From an uncultured delta proteobacterium (GTDB lineage: Bacteria; Desulfobacterota; Desulfobacteria; Desulfobacterales; SG8-13): a stretch of DNA of 64,000 nt. The stretch is taken from positions 18,649 through 82,648 of the forward strand of contig CAWAAN010000017.1 in assembly GCA_963779885.1 (NCBI GenBank), read 5' to 3'. The notes under the pieces were generated by a model, which worked only from the letters and a program-made list of their open reading frames with translations, did no database searches and was not told where the DNA came from. Shown here one piece after another: positions 31,988 to 45,184 of the stretch (position 1 is its first letter; the number at the start of each line of letters is the position of its first letter). Made by a program: the position numbers and the translations under genes.

Positions 31988-32452
31988 TCAGGCATCGAAA
32001 CGGGGACGAGCGGTGCGCCGTTTGAGGTCGTTGGCACGCAACAGTCGCAGAAGCCTTTCGGCAATGTCAGTCTCGCGGGGGCTTAAAATGCCGGCTCCCA
32101 CCCACCTTTCGATGGTTTCGGCCGGTACGGTCAGGTTTTCCGCACAGGTTTCCAGGTCGCCGATACCCACCAGGTCGATGTCAAAGCCGTTATCCGGCGA
32201 TGGAAGCGGTGAGGGGCCTCTTGAAACCGGATGCCGGTAGGCGGACGGATACCCATCAACCGACCACTTCGCTTGAACATCGTCGGGCGCCGCCGCCCGG
32301 GAGCCGAGGCGTTCCGGCATGCCCGCCGGCGCAAGCGCCTTGTCGGCCCGGGCCTCTTCGGCCAGGGTTCTGACCAGACGGTGCGCCTTGCCGGGTCTAA
32401 AGCGCTTGATAAAATTTTTCAGCACGTTAACAAAACGAGCGGCGTAGAGCAT
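31988..32452 (-). CDS. Hypothetical protein (C-terminus possibly HTH-like)
   Basis: ORF from MLYAARF with purine-rich upstream sequence; CAENLTVPAETIERWVGAGIL segment. Confidence 0.5.
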   Translation of the reverse strand: MLYAARFVNVLKNFIKRFRPGKAHRLVRTLAEEARADKALAPAGMPERLGSRAAAPDDVQAKWSVDGYPSAYRHPVSRGPSPLPSPDNGFDIDLVGIGDLETCAENLTVPAETIERWVGAGILSPRETDIAERLLRLLRANDLKRRTARPRFDA

Positions 32453-32721
32453 TGACGTTCCCTTCCCTATTGTCACTTCAGTTGACTCCCCCGCAGTCCG
32501 TTCGACCGTCCTTATTAAATGAGGCGACACCGTCCGCAAGCGGCCGCGGGGATGGCCTTCTGTGCGCCCGCCGCCTCGCATCTCCAGCACCCTATAAACG
32601 CTGCTTATCACCTGGTTTGAAGCGTATCGGACTGTGCAACACCCAGAACGGTTTTGCATCTCTTATCTTTATCATAAGACGGGTTCATGGGTTTGGCTCT
32701 AATGATTACACGGTATTTTGA

Positions 32722-34640: not shown

Positions 34641-34670
34641 GATGGGGAAGGACCCCCGCCTTTCCCCATC
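34641..34670. terminator. Hairpin between convergent motB and the fadL-like gene
   Basis: GATGGGGAAGG...CCTTTCCCCATC. Confidence 0.5.
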
Positions 34671-34675
34671 ATGAT

Positions 34676-35947
34676 CTAAAAGTACCAGCTGAGCCCGACG
34701 GTGGTGGACCACTCGCTCAGCTTTGATTCCAGCGTCACGGCGTTAAAGGCCGAGGTCTCCTGGATGGTCTTTTCCGGAGCATACATAAACGCCAGATTCA
34801 GGGCGAGGGCATCGGTCAGCCGGTAACCGACACCACCGGTGAAATGGTGTTCGACGATGGCCGGAAAACCGATGATGCGCAAGGTTTCGTAACCGACCCG
34901 GTTGACAGGGGTGCCCTGGACATCGACCACGTTGGTCGGGTCGAAAGGGTTGGGATTCCAGCCGTTGTGTTCATTGACCGGACTCTTGCCGTAATTGTAG
35001 CCCAGGCGCAGAGACCATTTCTCGGCCGGTTTCCACTGGGCGCCGAGGCCGAAGACCCACTGGTTGTCCCAGTCGAATTCCTTGTAGCCGGCCGCATCGG
35101 CCCAGTTGAACCAACGGGTGTAAAATTCGAAAAGCCACTGGTTGTTAGGCTCGAAGGAGACCCCGCCCTGAAGGCGCCAGGGGGCTTCCAGTTCCAGGTC
35201 CCGGTAGGGACCGGCGGGGTTCCCGAACTTGGAGACATTCTTGTGGTTGACCTTTTCGGGCGTGGTGACGGAAAAGCCGATGTTGAACTTGTCCAGATGA
35301 TAGAGGGCCCCCAGCTGCAATCCGACCGTGTAACCCGGAGCGGCCCCTTCTCCGAGATCCAGGCTCTGCCAGACGACTTCGAACGAGGCGCCGAGGCTGA
35401 AGTTCGGGGTGACCAGGTAGGCCAGGTTCGGTGCGAGTTTCAAGACCTGCAGCTGGGTGTAAACAACCGGAAGTGACGCCCCGGCCGGTGCCGGCGGCGA
35501 GGGCAGCGGCAGCCGCGAAAAGTCGATATTGGTATTCTTGTAATCCGTGCCCAGGCCCGAGACACCGTACATGCCGGCGCCGAAGCGCCATTTGTCGTTT
35601 ATGGGCGAGGTAACGGCAATGGCCGGAATGACCGAGGGCGGCGTTTCACTGTCAGCGCTGCCCGAAAAACCGGGCAGACCGTAATTCACGTTACCGGTGA
35701 CCGACGGCACGAAGACCGTGCCTGCGAAATCCACGGACGAGCCCGGGCAGAAGGGGCCGAAGCACATGGCGGCCGGGTTGGCGAAGATGGCGCTGATGCC
35801 ATCCTGCGGAGCGGCCACACCGGCACCGCCCATGGCGCGCGAGATTGGCCCGACACCGATCAGGGCATCGCCATTTGTGGCCCGGGCCGCCGGCACCAGG
35901 GTTAAGACTGCCGCAAACAGCGCCAACACAATCATTGTCTTTTTCAT
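34676..35947 (-). CDS. OmpP1/FadL/TodX family outer-membrane transporter
   Basis: Signal peptide, TNG..IGVGPISRAMGGAGVA, NPAAM hatch motif, amphipathic beta strands, C-terminal YF. Confidence 0.9.
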   Translation of the reverse strand: MKKTMIVLALFAAVLTLVPAARATNGDALIGVGPISRAMGGAGVAAPQDGISAIFANPAAMCFGPFCPGSSVDFAGTVFVPSVTGNVNYGLPGFSGSADSETPPSVIPAIAVTSPINDKWRFGAGMYGVSGLGTDYKNTNIDFSRLPLPSPPAPAGASLPVVYTQLQVLKLAPNLAYLVTPNFSLGASFEVVWQSLDLGEGAAPGYTVGLQLGALYHLDKFNIGFSVTTPEKVNHKNVSKFGNPAGPYRDLELEAPWRLQGGVSFEPNNQWLFEFYTRWFNWADAAGYKEFDWDNQWVFGLGAQWKPAEKWSLRLGYNYGKSPVNEHNGWNPNPFDPTNVVDVQGTPVNRVGYETLRIIGFPAIVEHHFTGGVGYRLTDALALNLAFMYAPEKTIQETSAFNAVTLESKLSEWSTTVGLSWYF

Positions 35948-36148
35948 CGTTTCCTCCCTTTGTGCAATTGATGATCAGCCATTATAATCCACGGTGTTTC
36001 AAACGTCGTCTCACCTCCTTTGCGCCAACAAAACAGTCCCACTTCGACAAGTGAACACATTTGGATACGAAGAATTGCCGGCGTTATGCGTCGGTCGCGG
36101 CAGAGCGCCTCGGAACCGGAAACCGCCAGTTTGAGACCGCAAAAAACC

Positions 36149-37426
36149 CTAAGCGGCGGCCTTTTTCGCCGGCACCAGGGCGTCGGCCACCATCGAAGAG
36201 AGGAACTGAACCTCCAATCCCATCTTGTAGTGGTCGTTCAGGTTGCTGAGCTGGGTGTGGCAGTTTTCACAGGCGGTGGACAATATTTTTGCGCCGGTGG
36301 CCTTGACCTGGTCGACTTTCACCTTGGCCGATTTCATCCGAAAATCGAGCGTGTCCTCTCCAAGGGCCACCAGGCCGCCCCCGCCGCCGCAGCACCAGTT
36401 GTAACGCGGATCGTCGGTCATCTCGCGAAAATTGTTGGACAGGTGGCCCAGGATGTAGCGGGCCTCGTCGATCACCCCGCCATTGCGGGCGATCTGGCAG
36501 GGGTCGTGATAGGTGACCGGTTCGGTGAAGCGGGTCTTATCGAGTGTGATGCGGCCATCGCGCAGGTAACGGGCGTGAACCTCGGTGATGGAAGAAACCG
36601 TGAACGGCTGGCGCCCCGAAAGCTGCTTCATCACCCGAAAAGCGGTGCCGCATTCGCAGATGCAGACTTCCTTGACTTTCAGGCGCAGGGCTTCGCTGAT
36701 GATGCGATCCAGGATCAGTTTGGTCTTGGCGGGGTCGCCCACGAAGGCCCCGAAGTTAACGGCCTCGAAAAAACTCAGGGTCCAGTTTTCGCCGGCGGCA
36801 TTGAAAATGGCGGCCGCCGGGATAATGGAATGGGCGCCGGCCAATGCCACATAGAGCAGGTCGGCGCCGGCCGTATCGACCGGAATGGCCGCGTGCCCGG
36901 CTTCGGTGCGCCATTTCTTGACCACCTCTTCCTCCAGCTGGCTGATCCCGGTCAGAAAGCCCTCCTTGAAAAATTCCAGCGATTTTCCTTTTTCGACGGA
37001 CGTGTCGGCCAGCATGCTCAGGATTTCCGGCTCGGCGCTGGCGCCGATCAGCAGCAGCTTGGCAATCGACATGAGCAGCTGGGTGTCGATGCCGAACGGG
37101 CAGTAGACCATGCAGCGGCGGCACCCCGTGCAGGAATAGGCGGCCTCGTAGAGTTGCTCGACGGCCAAGTCGTCGAGTTCTCTGGCTTCACCGAGCGAGG
37201 GCCAGAGCCGGCCGCGGACCTTGAAATATTTTTTATAGAGGCGCCGGATCAGCTCGTGCCGGTAGGCCGAGATGTACTTGGTATGGCCCATGGAGGCGTA
37301 GACGTGGCAGGCTTCCACGCACGTGCCGCAGCGGGTGCAGGTTTCAAGGTAGTATTTTATCGCGTGGGTGAACTTGCTGCGGAAAAGCCGCAACAGTTCC
37401 GCTTTGGTTTTGGTGTCCATGGTCAT
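36149..37426 (-). CDS. Fe-S oxidoreductase with CCG domain (DsrK/HdrD/HmcF/TmcB-like)
   Basis: CTRCGTCVEAC and CTGCRRCMVYCP [4Fe-4S] motifs; CECG; YHDPC...WCCGGGGG...TACENC. Confidence 0.9.
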   Translation of the reverse strand: MTMDTKTKAELLRLFRSKFTHAIKYYLETCTRCGTCVEACHVYASMGHTKYISAYRHELIRRLYKKYFKVRGRLWPSLGEARELDDLAVEQLYEAAYSCTGCRRCMVYCPFGIDTQLLMSIAKLLLIGASAEPEILSMLADTSVEKGKSLEFFKEGFLTGISQLEEEVVKKWRTEAGHAAIPVDTAGADLLYVALAGAHSIIPAAAIFNAAGENWTLSFFEAVNFGAFVGDPAKTKLILDRIISEALRLKVKEVCICECGTAFRVMKQLSGRQPFTVSSITEVHARYLRDGRITLDKTRFTEPVTYHDPCQIARNGGVIDEARYILGHLSNNFREMTDDPRYNWCCGGGGGLVALGEDTLDFRMKSAKVKVDQVKATGAKILSTACENCHTQLSNLNDHYKMGLEVQFLSSMVADALVPAKKAAA

Positions 37427-38136
37427 TAACCTCTTCTCAATTTATTCATGGGAAGCGACAGGAAAGCGTGCATCAGCTGGCTGAAGGGGAAAAACATCAG
37501 AAAAAGATTGGCGAAGAACACGTGCAGCACCAGCATGAAGGAGTGGCCGGAAAATGTCGTGGCATAGGGCAGATCGGGCTTTAACAACAGCAGGCTGTAA
37601 AGGTAGCCGCGGTAGTCCTCGACCGTCATCTCGCCGTAGCCATACCACCTCCTGGCCCAGTCCATCTCGCTGCCGAAGATAACGATCAAAAACAGCAGGA
37701 TCAGCAGGTAGTAGTCTTCGGGTACCGATAAATCCTTGACCGGTGAAATCAGGCGCCGGAAGAGAAAAAAGAGCAGGCAGACCGCCAGGATCAAGCCGAC
37801 GAAGCCGTTGCCGATAAAGACCTCGTGGGGAACGATCTGAAAGATGCCCATTTCGGCGATCAGCTCCAGGTGACCGATCAGCAGCAGCACCAGGCCGATG
37901 TGAAAGGCCATCAAAAAAACCCACAGCAGCGGCTTGTGTCTGAGAACGGTCGGAAACATGAACGAATCGTAGAGCGCCCACAACCAGTGGGGTTTTTTCT
38001 CGGGAAAGATCTGCAGCGTGGTGGGGTGCCGGGGGTATTGCCAGATCCTGACGATCCTCCAAACGGTTCCCACCAGGAATATCGCGCAGGCGATGTAGAC
38101 CATCGGTACCAGAATAAAATAGACGACGGATTGCAC
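37426..38136 (-). CDS. NarI-family cytochrome b membrane subunit (DsrM/HmcE/HdrE-like)
   Basis: About 5 TM segments; His pairs FHIG..IGHL and LHV..LMH; 1-bp overlap with the Fe-S gene. Confidence 0.88.
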   Translation of the reverse strand: MQSVVYFILVPMVYIACAIFLVGTVWRIVRIWQYPRHPTTLQIFPEKKPHWLWALYDSFMFPTVLRHKPLLWVFLMAFHIGLVLLLIGHLELIAEMGIFQIVPHEVFIGNGFVGLILAVCLLFFLFRRLISPVKDLSVPEDYYLLILLFLIVIFGSEMDWARRWYGYGEMTVEDYRGYLYSLLLLKPDLPYATTFSGHSFMLVLHVFFANLFLMFFPFSQLMHAFLSLPMNKLRRG

Positions 38137-38160
38137 GGCACAGTCTCCTTTTAAAAACCA

Positions 38161-38192
38161 GGTGGGGGGGCGCCGGTTGAACGCCCCCCGCC
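38161..38192 (-). terminator. GC-rich hairpin between tusA and the narI-like gene
   Basis: Minus strand GGCGGGGGGCG-loop-CGCCCCCCCACC followed by TGGTTTTT. Confidence 0.5.
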
Positions 38193-38197
38193 GGCCA

Positions 38198-38354
38198 AGG
38201 GCTCACTCAACAAAAACGTCACAATTTAGACGCCGATACATCCCGTCCGGCCGCTTTGCGAAAACTCGGAATATCCCGATATTCATGCGTCTTCGCGCCT
38301 TGCCGGCCGGGTGTCTCAACGCCAAAAATTGTGAATTTATCTTTCGTGAACCCT
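38198..38354 (-). repeat. About 155-bp MITE-like element, copy A
   Basis: Imperfect terminal inverted repeats AGGGCTCAC / GTGAACCCT; its reverse complement aligns end to end with 40194-40348. Confidence 0.8.
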
Positions 38355-38595
38355 AAACGTTGCGTTTGATGAAAAACTTTATGGTTTTGCCGTCCTGTTC
38401 GGTTTTAAGGATCTCGTTGCCGCTGGTGCGTGCCCAGGCCGGAAAATCCGTCAGCGACCCGGGGTCGGTTGAATGGGCTTCGATGACCTGACCGATTTCA
38501 ACTTCCTTGATGCCCTTGCTGACTTTCACCACCGGCATCGGGCAGGGCATACCTTTTAAATCCATGACTTTTTGAACCTTGATGTCTTCACTCAT
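38353..38595 (-). CDS. tusA: TusA/SirA family sulfur carrier protein
   Basis: DLKGMPCPMPV (CPxP), STDPGS..DFPAW, 80 aa; AGGAGG RBS. Confidence 0.92.
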   Translation of the reverse strand: MSEDIKVQKVMDLKGMPCPMPVVKVSKGIKEVEIGQVIEAHSTDPGSLTDFPAWARTSGNEILKTEQDGKTIKFFIKRNV

Positions 38596-38633
38596 GCTTT
38601 ACCTCCTGATTGAAATGAAATAGGTGAATAGGA

Positions 38634-39221
38634 TCATATGAACATGGTAATCCGACTGTTGTTCGCTTCTTCGAGGAACTTGGCTACGCCGCAAAATGTC
38701 AGGTCTTTGTAATCGATCATTTCCTCGCGCTTGAACCCCATCAGGTCCATGGACATTTCGCAGACGTAGATTTTGACACCCAGCTCCTCGGCCATCTCCA
38801 GCATCTGTTCGAGCGTGGCGACATTTTTTTTCTTCATCAGGGACCTCATCATGGCCGTGCCCATGCCGCCCATGTTCATTTTCGAGAGCTTCACCTCGCT
38901 GGTTCCCTTGGGCAGCATGGTCGCGAACATTTTGGCCATGGTATCCTTGCCGCCGACCCTCTTTTTCTTGTCCCTCAAGACCGGTGTACCCCAAAAAGTA
39001 AAGAACATCACGGCTTCCATCCCCATGGCGACGGCTCCGGTGGCGATGACAAAAGCGGCCAGGACCTTGTCCAGGTCACCGCTGAAGACGATGGTGGCGA
39101 CCTTGGGTTCGGTCGCCTTTTTGTCCAGTACATCGATTCGGCCCTTCAGGGCCGCCAGTTGTTCTTCGATCTGTTGCAAACTGACATCTGGCTGTTGAAT
39201 GGCACTCTCGGCTTGTGGCAT
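38634..39221 (-). CDS. DsrE/DsrF/DrsH-like (DsrE2/YrkE-type) sulfurtransferase with N-terminal coiled coil
   Basis: IVFSGDLDK..AFVIATGA, MFFTFWG, LSKMNMGGMG, VCEMSMDLMG, GVAKFL. Confidence 0.9.
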   Translation of the reverse strand: MPQAESAIQQPDVSLQQIEEQLAALKGRIDVLDKKATEPKVATIVFSGDLDKVLAAFVIATGAVAMGMEAVMFFTFWGTPVLRDKKKRVGGKDTMAKMFATMLPKGTSEVKLSKMNMGGMGTAMMRSLMKKKNVATLEQMLEMAEELGVKIYVCEMSMDLMGFKREEMIDYKDLTFCGVAKFLEEANNSRITMFI

Positions 39222-39378
39222 GGCTTCCTCCGCTGCGTTAAAATGGTTTGCAGAAAAATAACAATCGTGCTGATATTTTCGTCAATGGGCGCGTTCGTCT
39301 ATAGGGTGAACTATTTATTTGACTGATTTTCACCCCACAGTCTCCAGCGCGATCCGCCGCAATGGTGCCGAAAACGGG

Positions 39379-39858
39379 TCAGTCCATCATGTCTTTGACC
39401 GCTTCCATCGATGATTTGAGCAGTTCGAGATCAATCAGCATGAGCTTTCTTTGCTCCGGTGAAATCCGCAACAGAACCTGGTGGTGAACCTCGTCCATAA
39501 ACGCTTTGATGTCGGTCAACTTTTTATGCCCCTCGGACGAGAGACTCAACAGGTGTACCCGCGAATCCTCCGGGTCCTTGATGCGCTGAACGTAACCCTT
39601 TCGGGTGAGGCCATCGATGATTTTGGAGATGCGGCTCTTGACGACATTCATCTTCTGGGCGATGCCCTTGGGCGTGAGGTAGCGCTCCTCGCCGAAAAGC
39701 AGCAGACAACGCAACTCGGCGTCCGGCAGATCGAACCGATCGCTCTGGTACTGCATCCGTTCCTGACAGCACTGGTACAACCGATTCACCAGGCGCTGGA
39801 ACTGTTCCAGTTGATATGACGATATGTCACTGGCGTGGGCATCGGCTTGATGATTCAT
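39379..39858 (-). CDS. MarR family transcriptional regulator with three cysteines
   Basis: Winged HTH IAQKMNVVKSRISKIIDGL..KGYVQR..DPEDSR; CCQER and LRCLL. Confidence 0.9.
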   Translation of the reverse strand: MNHQADAHASDISSYQLEQFQRLVNRLYQCCQERMQYQSDRFDLPDAELRCLLLFGEERYLTPKGIAQKMNVVKSRISKIIDGLTRKGYVQRIKDPEDSRVHLLSLSSEGHKKLTDIKAFMDEVHHQVLLRISPEQRKLMLIDLELLKSSMEAVKDMMD

Positions 39859-39901
39859 GGCATGAACAATATGCCTCCTTATGGCGTCTGTCAAGCTTTT
39901 A

Positions 39902-39922
39902 TTCAATAATACCATTATTAAA
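39902..39922. promoter_or_regulatory. Candidate MarR operator palindrome
   Basis: TTCAATAAT-ACC-ATTATTAAA, immediately upstream of a minus-strand TTGACA-N17-TATTGT. Confidence 0.45.
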
Positions 39923-40193: not shown

Positions 40194-40348
40194 AGGGCTC
40201 ACGAAAGAATAAAATCACCATTTTCGGCATTGAGACGCCCGGCCGTCAAGGGCAAAAATTTAGTAAAATTGGGATATTAAAGAGCTTTCGAAACGCAGGA
40301 GGGTGGGATGTATCGGCGTTTAAAATAGGAAGTTATTTGAGCGAGCCC
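40194..40348 (+). repeat. About 155-bp MITE-like element, copy B (inverted relative to copy A)
   Basis: AGGGCTCACGAAAG..TTGAGACGCCCGGCCG..GGGATATT..GGGATGTATCGGCGT..TTGAGCGAGCCC. Confidence 0.8.
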
Positions 40349-44244: not shown

Positions 44245-45160
44245 TTACACTTTCTGCGATTCCGAACGCCCCAGAATGCCCGACGGCCTGAAAATCAGAA
44301 TAAATACCAGAAACAGAAAAGCAAAGACATCTTCGTAGTCACTGGAAATATAGCCGGTGAAAAAGCTTTCGGTCCAGCCCAGCACCAGGCTGCCGAGCAC
44401 CGCCCCCGGGATGCTGCCGATCCCGCCCAGCACGGCGGCGACAAAGGCTTTGATGCCGGCTGAGAAAACCGATATAAAAATTGATCTGTCCGATGTGGGA
44501 GGCGATCAGCACGCCGCCGATGGCGGCCGTGGCCGAGCCGACGATGAAGGTCACCGAGATGACGCGGTCGACGTCCACCCCCACCAGCATGGCCATCTGC
44601 TTGTCCTGCGAAACCGCCCGCATGGCCTTGCCGATCCGGGTGAATTTGATCAAAATAGTCAGCAGGATCATGACGATGGCGGTGGTGACGTAAATGACGA
44701 TTTGCGAGGAGCGGACCAGGTGTTCCCAGGGCTTGAGCCACTCGAATTCGGGGATGAGGGCCGGAAAGGGCAGAAAATCCGAGGTCTGCGCCAGCAGCAC
44801 GTAATTCTGAAGAAAAAGCGACATGCCGATGGCGCTGATCAGGGCCGAGAGACGCGGCGCGTTGCGCAGCGGTCTGTAAGCGATCTTCTCGACCGTGTAG
44901 CCGTAGGCCGAGGAATACACCACCGCCACCGCGGCGGCGATAAAGAGAATGGCAACCGAATTCCAGCCCATCATCGTCAGGACACCGGTGACGATCAGGG
45001 CTGTGAAGGCGCCGATCATGTAAATCTCGCCGTGGGCGAAGTTGATGAGTTCGATGATTCCGTAAACCATGGTATAGCCCAGGGCGATCAGGGCATAGAT
45101 GCTTCCGCGGGTCAGACCCGCCAGAAACAGCTCCATGAAGTAGTCGAAATCCCAGTACAT
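44245..45160 (-). pseudogene. livH: LivH permease split by a +1 frameshift (genuine or sequencing error)
   Basis: Minus strand GGT TTT CTC A GCC GGC ATC AAA; removing base 44461 restores FYIGFLAGIKAFVAAVLGGIGS. Confidence 0.85.
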
Positions 45161-45184
45161 GGTTGTCTCCGTGAAAAGCAATCA

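Follow-up and report, generated by a model that had tools for sequence, protein, structure and literature searches.

A conserved and apparently undescribed operon joining predicted DsrE2-family and TusA carriers to a DsrMK-type membrane enzyme in Desulfobacterota

Introduction

The complex DsrMKJOP has been proven to reduce DsrC-trisulfide with menadiol (PMC10861901), and its subunits DsrM and DsrK are the reference for a pair of related genes, here named M and K, that stand in a different genetic setting. The pair was found in a stretch of 64,000 nucleotides (hereafter the window) from an uncultured delta proteobacterium of the lineage SG8-13, order Desulfobacterales, phylum Desulfobacterota (assembly GCA_963779885.1, contig CAWAAN010000017.1, positions 18,649 to 82,648). 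It belongs to an operon of six co-directional genes, marR, dsrE2, tusA, M, K and fadL, all on the minus strand between positions 34676 and 39915. The operon is a real, conserved and apparently undescribed variant of the DsrMK-type system, with TusA as the likely partner.

The likeness to the DsrMK pair of DsrMKJOP lies in the anatomy: a di-haem NarI-type anchor, a subunit with two [4Fe-4S] clusters and a single complete CCG domain, an extra Cys in an ECG motif, and the gene order M-K. In contrast to DsrMK, K and M are each about 120 amino acids (aa) shorter, the motif reads CECGT in place of GECGH, K is 28–29% identical to the DsrK of its own host, dsrT, dsrJ, dsrO and dsrP are missing, and the pair is tied to tusA and dsrE2 and occurs without dsrAB and dsrC. 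Since the anatomy is that of DsrMK and the proteins nevertheless fall outside DsrMK membership, the operon is regarded as a variant of the DsrMK type and not as DsrMK itself. TmcBC and HmcEF have similar subunit sizes and a single CCG motif ending in Cys, and M scores best on TmcC; the operon proteins are nonetheless far below the cut-offs, K forms a separate clade, and no TmcA, TmcD or Hmc cytochrome partner is adjacent.

The literature on the carriers covers the YTD cluster with DsrEFH type II, rhd-tusA-dsrE2 and dsrE-tusA-hdr. In the rhd-tusA-dsrE2 genes of Allochromatium and the dsrE3A-dsrE2B-tusA and hdr-like genes of Metallosphaera, adjacent dsrE2-family and tusA genes are likewise tied to a CCG-type enzyme (PMC4175335). 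These systems serve sulfur oxidation via DsrEFH/DsrC or a soluble sHdr with lipoate proteins (PMC4175335), whereas the partner in the operon is a two-subunit membrane MK, and HdrA, rhodanese and lipoate genes are absent. Like the operon, the YTD cluster of Desulfobacterota pairs TusA with a protein of the DsrE type, in sulfate reducers as well as in disproportionators; it consists of an inner-membrane YeeE/YedE and DsrEFH type II with no redox enzyme (PMC13293266, PMC12998232). Unlike it, the operon has a DsrE2-family protein, a membrane oxidoreductase of its own and an outer-membrane channel, and no YeeE. This channel shares the fold and the NPA motif of FadL, TodX and TbuX and differs from them in its distinct clade, 15–20% identity to solved FadL/TodX and an invariant CxxxxC. 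CT2230 of Chlorobaculum tepidum also belongs to the FadL family, and a role in carrying hydrophobic sulfur chains has been proposed for it (bioRxiv 10.1101/172254).

A search of the full-text literature, in which subscription papers are mostly outside coverage, gave no title or abstract on the marR-dsrE2-tusA-M-K(-fadL) arrangement, and among the papers listed none combined all of DsrMK, TusA, DsrE and FadL. The operon is not described in the available text of PMC8528874, PMC13047784, PMC5947623, PMC8477390, PMC13293266, PMC12998232, PMC4175335, PMC13490349, PMC13510729, PMC10504309, PMC10861901 or bioRxiv 10.1101/172254. A published basal clade with dsrMK only takes in 74 bacterial assemblies, among them Deltaproteobacteria that have DsrMKJOP as well, and 7 of the 74 are without DsrAB (PMC10504309); the published DsrMK-only clades (PMC10504309, PMC8477390) may contain operon M-K sequences. 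The accessions of Desulfacinum infernum, a cultured carrier of the operon, had no match in the partial table text of Supplementary Table 1 of PMC10504309.

Results and Discussion

Conservation of the operon

The six genes proposed by the first-pass annotation are real (Table 1), and Pfam bore out the domains that it had assigned (MarR/MarR_2, DrsE_2, TusA, Nitrate_red_gam, Fer4_8 plus CCG, and Toluene_X); in NCBIfam, none of the six proteins is above any curated cut-off. K orthologues occur in 22 of 60 relatives, from 11 families of the order, at 68–97% identity (next best match 36%), and in 22 of 400 phylum genomes at E 1e-90. In a GTDB contig scan 226 relatives were confirmed, and the comparison used the best 80 of them, including Desulfobacterales, Desulfatiglandales, Syntrophobacteraceae, Desulfacinum infernum DSM 9756 and one NC10 metagenome-assembled genome (MAG). 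With 20 phylum loci added and one duplicate removed, it comprised 99 loci, which are best hits and kin and not independent draws, and each gene was counted only in loci long enough to show it. The breadth outside Desulfobacterota rests on the GTDB contig scan and on metagenome loci.

Gene order is kept across many families. Beside K, M is present in 90/90 loci, tusA in 80/83, dsrE2 in 73/76 and marR in 66/73. In 22 metagenome loci, whose K is 55–67% identical to that of the window, dsrE2-tusA-M-K is repeated where upstream DNA is covered, tusA being undetected in one. Of the six-gene minimal system claimed earlier, a five-gene core, marR-dsrE2-tusA-M-K, stands, and fadL is an optional member. 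Cultured carriers are Desulfacinum infernum DSM 9756, with all six genes, and Desulfoferula mesophila, with a K orthologue. The accessions of the D. infernum proteins are WP_073040186.1 for K, WP_073040184.1 for M and WP_073040182.1 for TusA.

As had been stated, no dsrJOP, dsrC or multiheme cytochrome gene is adjacent, the flanking genes having been examined by domain search. Among the 45 largest neighbour clusters there was no recurrent dsrC, selenium or catabolic gene cluster, and the only other recurrent same-strand members are small DsrE/F/H-like genes after K or fadL, in 8 loci. These are two small open reading frames (ORFs; L073:9521-10435, L114:11012-11976 and six more loci), with one weak Pfam DsrE match (E 8e-4), and are possibly DsrEFH type II. 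In two Syntrophobacteraceae-type loci, L125 and L131 (288-5149), the operon lies directly downstream of same-strand genes, which we take to be QmoA/B/C-like.

Occurrence in genomes without Dsr genes

Of 74 genomes searched, 73 of which carry K, 60 gave a match to dsrA; the 14 that gave none are K-bearing. Among these 14, a canonical DsrC is present in four, DsrC-like matches (E 1e-24) in one and only weak matches containing stops in two, while seven gave no DsrC match. With host DsrK as the query, no match above 32% identity was obtained in the 10 of these 14 genomes that were searched, and aprA had none above the cut-off in the five dsrA-less genomes searched. No match to dsrA, dsrC, canonical dsrK or aprA was obtained in G332, G384, G455, G468 and G482. 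The operon is intact in G384 (94% complete), G455 (91%), G468 (3.18 Mb, a chromosome record) and G482, and K runs off the contig in G332 (93% complete); K looks broken or partial in G195 and G342. Since four genes at different loci are missing together, chance loss from MAGs is unlikely, even if their absence is still unproven, and the presence of the operon in such genomes argues that DsrC is probably not its partner.

The M-K membrane enzyme

M falls below the NCBIfam cut-offs (TmcC, the best, 52 bits against 240; DsrM 33.6 against 300). It has five hydrophobic segments and four invariant His (H79 and H89 in 91/91 rows, H205 and H223 in 90/90), and it is predicted from these features to be a di-haem b, quinol-interacting anchor. 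K is likewise below the cut-offs of DsrK (260 against 400, its best match), TmcB (221 against 735) and HmcF (204 against 750). Its two sets of four cluster Cys and its five-Cys CCG motif, 13 Cys in all, are invariant in 95–96 rows. The AlphaFold2 model of K (mean predicted local distance difference test score, pLDDT, 88.7) has structural matches in EtfD (E 1.8e-13) and in chains of HdrB (E 2e-5 to 8e-4); a sequence search of the PDB gave one weak match for K (9ojn) and none for M.

The motif (T/G)ECGH, with a probably catalytic Cys, is common to DsrK, TmcB and HmcF (PMC10861901), and the His of CGH is kept in 19/19 rows of DsrK, TmcB, HmcF and other paralogues. K of the window has CICECGT; CECGT is present in 98/99 loci, a further Cys two places before it in 91/99, and ECGT in 20/20 readable metagenome K proteins. 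The phylogeny of the CCG protein placed 20 operon K proteins in a clade of their own (SH-aLRT, the Shimodaira–Hasegawa-like approximate likelihood-ratio test, 100), apart from DsrK, TmcB-like and HmcF-like proteins. This tree was a quick IQ-TREE search of 43 proteins, with 5 DsrK, 8 TmcB-like and 4 HmcF-like rows and one further pair; it was built without archaeal or clostridial DsrK and gives no sister group for the operon clade. Among 7993 candidates of 745–2125 aa no fused longer form of K was found at E 1e-60, which is weak evidence. Public annotations give only general names, such as 'Fe-S-binding protein' and 'nitrate reductase gamma subunit'. Another DsrK/TmcB/HmcF-like clade, with PCGH in place of ECGH and about 256–264 bits on all three models, was observed in two genomes of the same family (L056:7616-8971, L057:4466-5851).

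The host genome (4.67 Mb, 88% complete) carries dsrA on contig C19, one two-Cys dsrC and tmcABCD (above cut-off) on C13, and dsrM-K-J-P above cut-off on C24 (DsrK 712 bits, DsrM 503 bits), with ORFs between and upstream of the latter that we take to be dsrO and dsrT. It is thus a sulfate-reducer-type genome, in which the M-K pair of the window is an extra paralogue lying outside the Dsr and Tmc complexes, both on other contigs; by alignment, K is as distant from host TmcB as from host DsrK. That K might be the missing DsrK or TmcB of the host is ruled out, both being encoded elsewhere. The overlap of M and K reported by the first-pass annotation amounts to one base if the first ATG of K (37426) is used, and it does not hold for the Met-Asp start of the orthologues, at 37420.

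The carriers DsrE2 and TusA

Cys154 of DsrE2 and Cys18 of TusA are each invariant in 85/85 rows. DsrE2 is predicted from its sequence to be a sulfur carrier or transferase; the window protein is below the NCBIfam DsrE2 cut-off (82.7 against 210), has one hydrophobic segment, whereas the Allochromatium-type DsrE2 has two transmembrane helices (PMC12998232), and matches PDB sequences 3pnx (E 4.6e-29) and 2qs7 (E 1.3e-17), the latter being the Sulfolobus counterpart of Metallosphaera DsrE2B. TusA has the CPxP motif and a mean column identity of 79% over 64 rows. It is below the NCBIfam TusA equivalog cut-off (43.5 against 78), and its best NCBIfam match is the selenium-metabolism protein YedF (52 bits, cut-off 79).

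Regulator, promoter and operators

The adjacent Cys pair of MarR is present in 73/73 relatives and the third Cys in 68/73, and the protein is predicted to be a thiol or sulfane-sulfur sensor. Upstream of marR, TTGAC, 16–18 nucleotides (nt), TANNNT and, 7 or 9 nt on, ATG are found in 53/73 relatives; in the window the ATG at 39858 stands 7 nt past the -10 box. This ATG is most likely the start of marR, given the conserved promoter before it and the operator that overlaps it, and a 178-aa MarR from the ATG at 39915 was rejected, since that start lies before the conserved promoter. The marR mRNA is likely leaderless.

Operator 1 occurs with at most one mismatch in 68/73 relatives against 0.2 expected, and operator 2 with at most two mismatches in 55/76 against 5.3 expected (expectations from 20 dinucleotide-block shuffles per sequence). 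Autorepression is predicted from these sites, the operon being likely repressed by its own MarR. Before fadL, the count at two mismatches (3/39 loci against 3.1 expected) is that expected by chance, so that no separate MarR site is placed there. In a scan of the host genome with a matrix from the relatives, the marR site ranked first (25.7 bits) and the dsrE2 site seventh, the next site after the marR promoter reaching 19.4 bits; as no other host site is near the marR score, no wider MarR regulon is claimed.

Where MarR is missing, the slot holds an ArsR-family gene (5 loci, confirmed by Pfam), each product with one Cys in the N-terminal region and a C-terminal CxxxC, and in one fadL-dsrE2 locus the regulator is a two-Cys CsoR/RcnR-family gene. 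Three unrelated Cys-bearing families (MarR, ArsR and CsoR/RcnR) thus occupy the regulator slot. The ArsR (SqrR/BigR) and CsoR (CstR) families include persulfide sensors.

The FadL-type channel

FadL has an N-terminal hydrophobic, signal-like segment and an NPA motif followed by CxxxxC. Its AlphaFold2 model (pLDDT 84.9) matches TodX (E 2.4e-23) and FadL (E 2.1e-22) in Foldseek; it is below the NCBIfam FadL equivalog cut-off (24.9 against 585). C62 and C67 are present in 34/34 operon loci, and CxxxxC directly follows NPA in 120/120 of the best FadL homologues; the two other FadL-family proteins of the host are without this pair. For the homologues from Geomonas/Geobacter, a search for their gene context gave no informative genome. 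The link to sulfur drawn for this channel in the first-pass annotation finds support in gene context. In the 400-genome phylum sample the clade occurs in 16 genomes. It adjoins K in 9 of them and, with no K, a dsrE2-family gene in 4 more, 13 in all; in the other three it lies at a contig edge (2) or elsewhere (1). One K-less locus reads marR-dsrE2-fadL. Among database proteins, one TusA domain is in frame with a FadL-clade protein and another such protein is in frame with a DsrE2-like N-terminus; these may be gene-calling or assembly artefacts, yet they show adjacency.

Proposed function

Taken together, the operon may best be read as an inducible menaquinol:TusA-persulfide reductase, for detoxification or respiration, with optional sulfur import; we give this reading a probability of roughly 0.55. 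Polysulfide or S8 would modify the Cys pair of MarR and free the two operators, a Cys-bearing repressor implying that oxidants or reactive sulfur induce the operon. In carriers with fadL, sulfur in a hydrophobic form (S8, H2Sn or organic polysulfanes) would enter through the outer-membrane channel and diffuse through the inner membrane; the operon encodes no inner-membrane transporter, which fits a membrane-soluble substrate. Cys154 of DsrE2 and Cys18 of TusA would, by family knowledge, capture and relay the sulfur. By analogy with DsrMK, electrons would pass from menaquinol through the two haems of M to the two cubanes and the non-cubane CCG cluster of K, where the sulfur would be reduced. 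The extra Cys of CxCECGT could be the second thiol for a one-Cys carrier, a thiol that DsrC has of its own, accepting the sulfane sulfur or resolving a mixed disulfide, and sulfide would be released without need for DsrC.

Several observations weigh against this interpretation. Menaquinol has a potential of about -70 mV and small trisulfides of -346 mV, the potential of the DsrC-trisulfide being stated as unknown (PMC10861901), and persulfide reduction by menaquinol may therefore be uphill. The closest tested DsrE2 relative, Metallosphaera DsrE2B, showed no reaction with any of six sulfur compounds and no binding to TusA, and Metallosphaera TusA reacted only with tetrathionate (PMC4175335). 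The second Cys of K (C257), preceding ECGT, is Val in 4/20 metagenome K proteins and is thus not essential everywhere. Regarding import, fadL follows K in 39/82 loci and is missing from 43/82, it was found in 0/22 metagenome loci, and the relatives L165 and L171 have beside the operon a different FadL of 25–28% identity without the Cys pair. Most carriers are sulfate reducers, with dsrA in 59/73 K-bearing genomes, these being kin and not independent. Finally, G033 (98% complete, no dsrA or canonical DsrK match) has tusA-M-K with dsrC 1.2 kb downstream (L045:6100-9950), a DsrC that ends in CCI rather than CV.

A more far-reaching reading is put forward only tentatively. It would be a DsrC-independent, TusA-based respiration or disproportionation of S0, in which a Cys-gated FadL imports S8 or polysulfide, DsrE2 and TusA carry the sulfur, and a distinct DsrMK lineage, its active site rebuilt as CxCECGT, couples the sulfur to the quinone pool.

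The same genes could also work in the opposite direction, which we consider unlikely: MK would oxidise carrier-bound sulfur or sulfide and reduce quinones, as rDsrMK does, in the service of disproportionation or oxidation, and TusA might feed DsrC directly or via DsrEFH type II. On thermodynamic grounds, electrons would pass more easily from sulfide or persulfide to menaquinone than the other way (PMC10861901), the first descriptions of DsrE2 and TusA come from sulfur oxidisers (PMC4175335, PMC8477390), transfer from TusA to DsrC occurs in vitro in cable bacteria (PMC13293266), and the small DsrE/F/H-like genes behind K or fadL would suit such a route. However, no sink for an oxidised product is evident in the genomes that gave no match to dsrA, dsrC and aprA, the internal trisulfide made by rDsrMK on DsrC is out of reach for a one-Cys carrier, and no yeeE gene lies in the operon, the host YeeE/YedE matches being on C10.

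Somewhat less probable still is a substrate other than inorganic sulfur, namely a hydrophobic organic disulfide or polysulfide (such as dimethyl disulfide or trisulfide) or a selenium species, which would be imported or encountered and reduced for detoxification. FadL/TodX channels, whose fold is matched here, are known for organic hydrophobic solutes, Hdr-type CCG enzymes cleave organic disulfides (PMC10861901), and the YedF match of TusA would agree with selenium; yet a small disulfide needs no protein sulfur carriers, and neither selenium nor catabolic genes recur among the 45 largest neighbour clusters. That M-K is a spare DsrMK reducing DsrC-trisulfide under stress, with the carrier genes as merely co-regulated neighbours, has in its favour the best NCBIfam match of K, the published dsrMK-only clade in Deltaproteobacteria with DsrMKJOP (PMC10504309), the many K-bearing genomes with dsrA and the nearby dsrC of G033, but it is very improbable given the intact operon in G384, G455, G468 and G482, which gave no match to dsrA, dsrC, canonical dsrK or aprA, the lost His of GECGH, the nearly constant proximity of tusA (80/83 loci) and the lack of a recurrent dsrC among the neighbour clusters.

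Transcript features and neighbouring loci

The coordinates of all features are shown in Table 1.

Table 1. Features of the operon and its surroundings, in positions of the window.
Feature	Coordinates	Strand	Characteristics
Hairpin	34641..34670	-	Just 3' of fadL, facing convergent motB; fold z -0.31 (whole segment), without U-run
fadL	34676..35947	-	FadL/TodX-type outer-membrane channel, 423 aa; Pfam Toluene_X; optional operon member
Shine-Dalgarno-like site	36011..36021	-	AAAGGAGGTGA, perfect, stand-alone; about 70 nt before the fadL start
K	36149..37426	-	DsrK/TmcB/HmcF-related subunit, 423-425 aa; Pfam Fer4_8 + CCG; 2x[4Fe-4S], one complete CCG
M	37426..38136	-	NarI/DsrM/TmcC-type membrane subunit, 236 aa; Pfam Nitrate_red_gam 55.8 bits
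GC-rich hairpin	38161..38192	-	RNA fold; in the ancestral tusA-M spacer
Repeat, like a miniature inverted-repeat transposable element	38198..38354		About 155 bp with inverted repeats at both ends; insertion point is the stop codon of tusA; absent from the ancestral operon
tusA	38353..38595	-	TusA-family carrier, 80 aa; Pfam TusA; CPMP with Cys18
dsrE2	38634..39221	-	DsrE2-family protein, 195 aa; Pfam DrsE_2 175 bits; Cys154 in CEMS
MarR operator 2 (predicted)	39297..39311	-	In the marR-dsrE2 spacer; 2 mismatches
marR	39379..39858	-	MarR-family repressor, 159 aa; Pfam MarR; Cys-Cys pair and third Cys
MarR operator 1 (predicted)	39853..39867	-	GTTCA-N5-TGAAC palindrome; overlaps both the -10 box and the start codon of marR
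Sigma70-type promoter	39866..39894	-	-35 TTGACA 39894-39889, -10 TATTGT 39871-39866; best site, 10/12 matches

The gap of 216 bp between tusA and M consists of an ancestral spacer of about 60 bp and a copy of the genome-wide repeat. This repeat has 27 BLASTN matches in the host genome, 21 of them of at least 120 bp, with copies 70–87% identical and mostly intergenic-looking, one of them upstream of marR at about 40196-40348. It has no Rfam match and is missing from 17/17 aligned relatives. An Rfam scan of the window between 33000 and 41500 gave no match at the gathering score.

The hairpin in the ancestral spacer, which the terminator scan did not list, was considered as the operon end and rejected, as the spacer is conserved and short in relatives. 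Unrelated stable hairpins (z < -2 against mononucleotide shuffles) lie in the first 70 nt of the tusA-M spacer in 41 of 80 loci, one duplicate included, mostly without a U-run. Since the spacer stays short and a U-run is mostly lacking, an internal stabiliser or attenuator fits better than an operon end, and the hairpin may act as a stabiliser or partial terminator favouring the small carriers over the membrane enzyme. The operon possibly ends at the hairpin 3' of fadL, for which the fold signal is weak. A stand-alone Shine-Dalgarno-like site 68–102 nt before fadL is present in 16/39 loci, with a background of 0.025 per kb and no conserved ORF behind it. The AAAGGAGGTGA site is a possible mRNA stabiliser and resembles the STAB-SD type.

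The operon is flanked downstream by motA/motB, motB being convergent with fadL, and upstream by an outer-membrane barrel gene. Between motA and a nicotinate phosphoribosyltransferase gene, a 223-aa ORF (31988-32659, minus strand) has no Pfam or NCBIfam match and may be spurious. At 44245-45181 (minus strand) a livH-like branched-chain amino-acid ATP-binding cassette permease gene is split by an apparent frameshift near 44400, which may be a sequencing error.

Elsewhere in the host, a cluster (L054:4627-13505; G000:C1:138600-147500) comprises a tusA-like gene, an MvhD-like gene, two HdrA-like genes, a small helix-turn-helix protein gene, a QmoC-like gene (188/300), dsrE, a gene for a 262-aa protein, a dsrE2 paralogue whose product is 51% identical to DsrE2 of the window, and another dsrE. 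It looks like a Qmo/Hdr-type counterpart of the operon. A CCG-family gene on another contig (L053:7231-8457; G000:C6) has an in-frame TGA, and a single-TGA pattern is common in relatives, which suggests selenocysteine or a conserved two-gene split.

Significance

The operon bears on the uptake and activation of insoluble S0 or polysulfide by sulfate reducers and by disproportionators. In two papers of 2026 the outer-membrane step is given as unidentified (PMC13490349, PMC13510729), and disproportionation has no unambiguous marker gene (PMC12998232). It offers a complete candidate set open to experiment, with a sensor and its operator sequence, carriers, a membrane enzyme and a channel, and it occurs in cultured strains. 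In genomes without dsrAB, its M-K genes may be mistaken for dsrMK and counted as markers of sulfite reduction. If the reading as a TusA-persulfide reductase is true, a DsrK-type enzyme would work with a carrier other than DsrC. Should the more tentative S0 module also be true, many uncultured Desulfobacterota and non-sulfate-reducing anaerobes would have an unrecognised use of S0, and FadL would be the first outer-membrane S0 channel named in anaerobic respirers.

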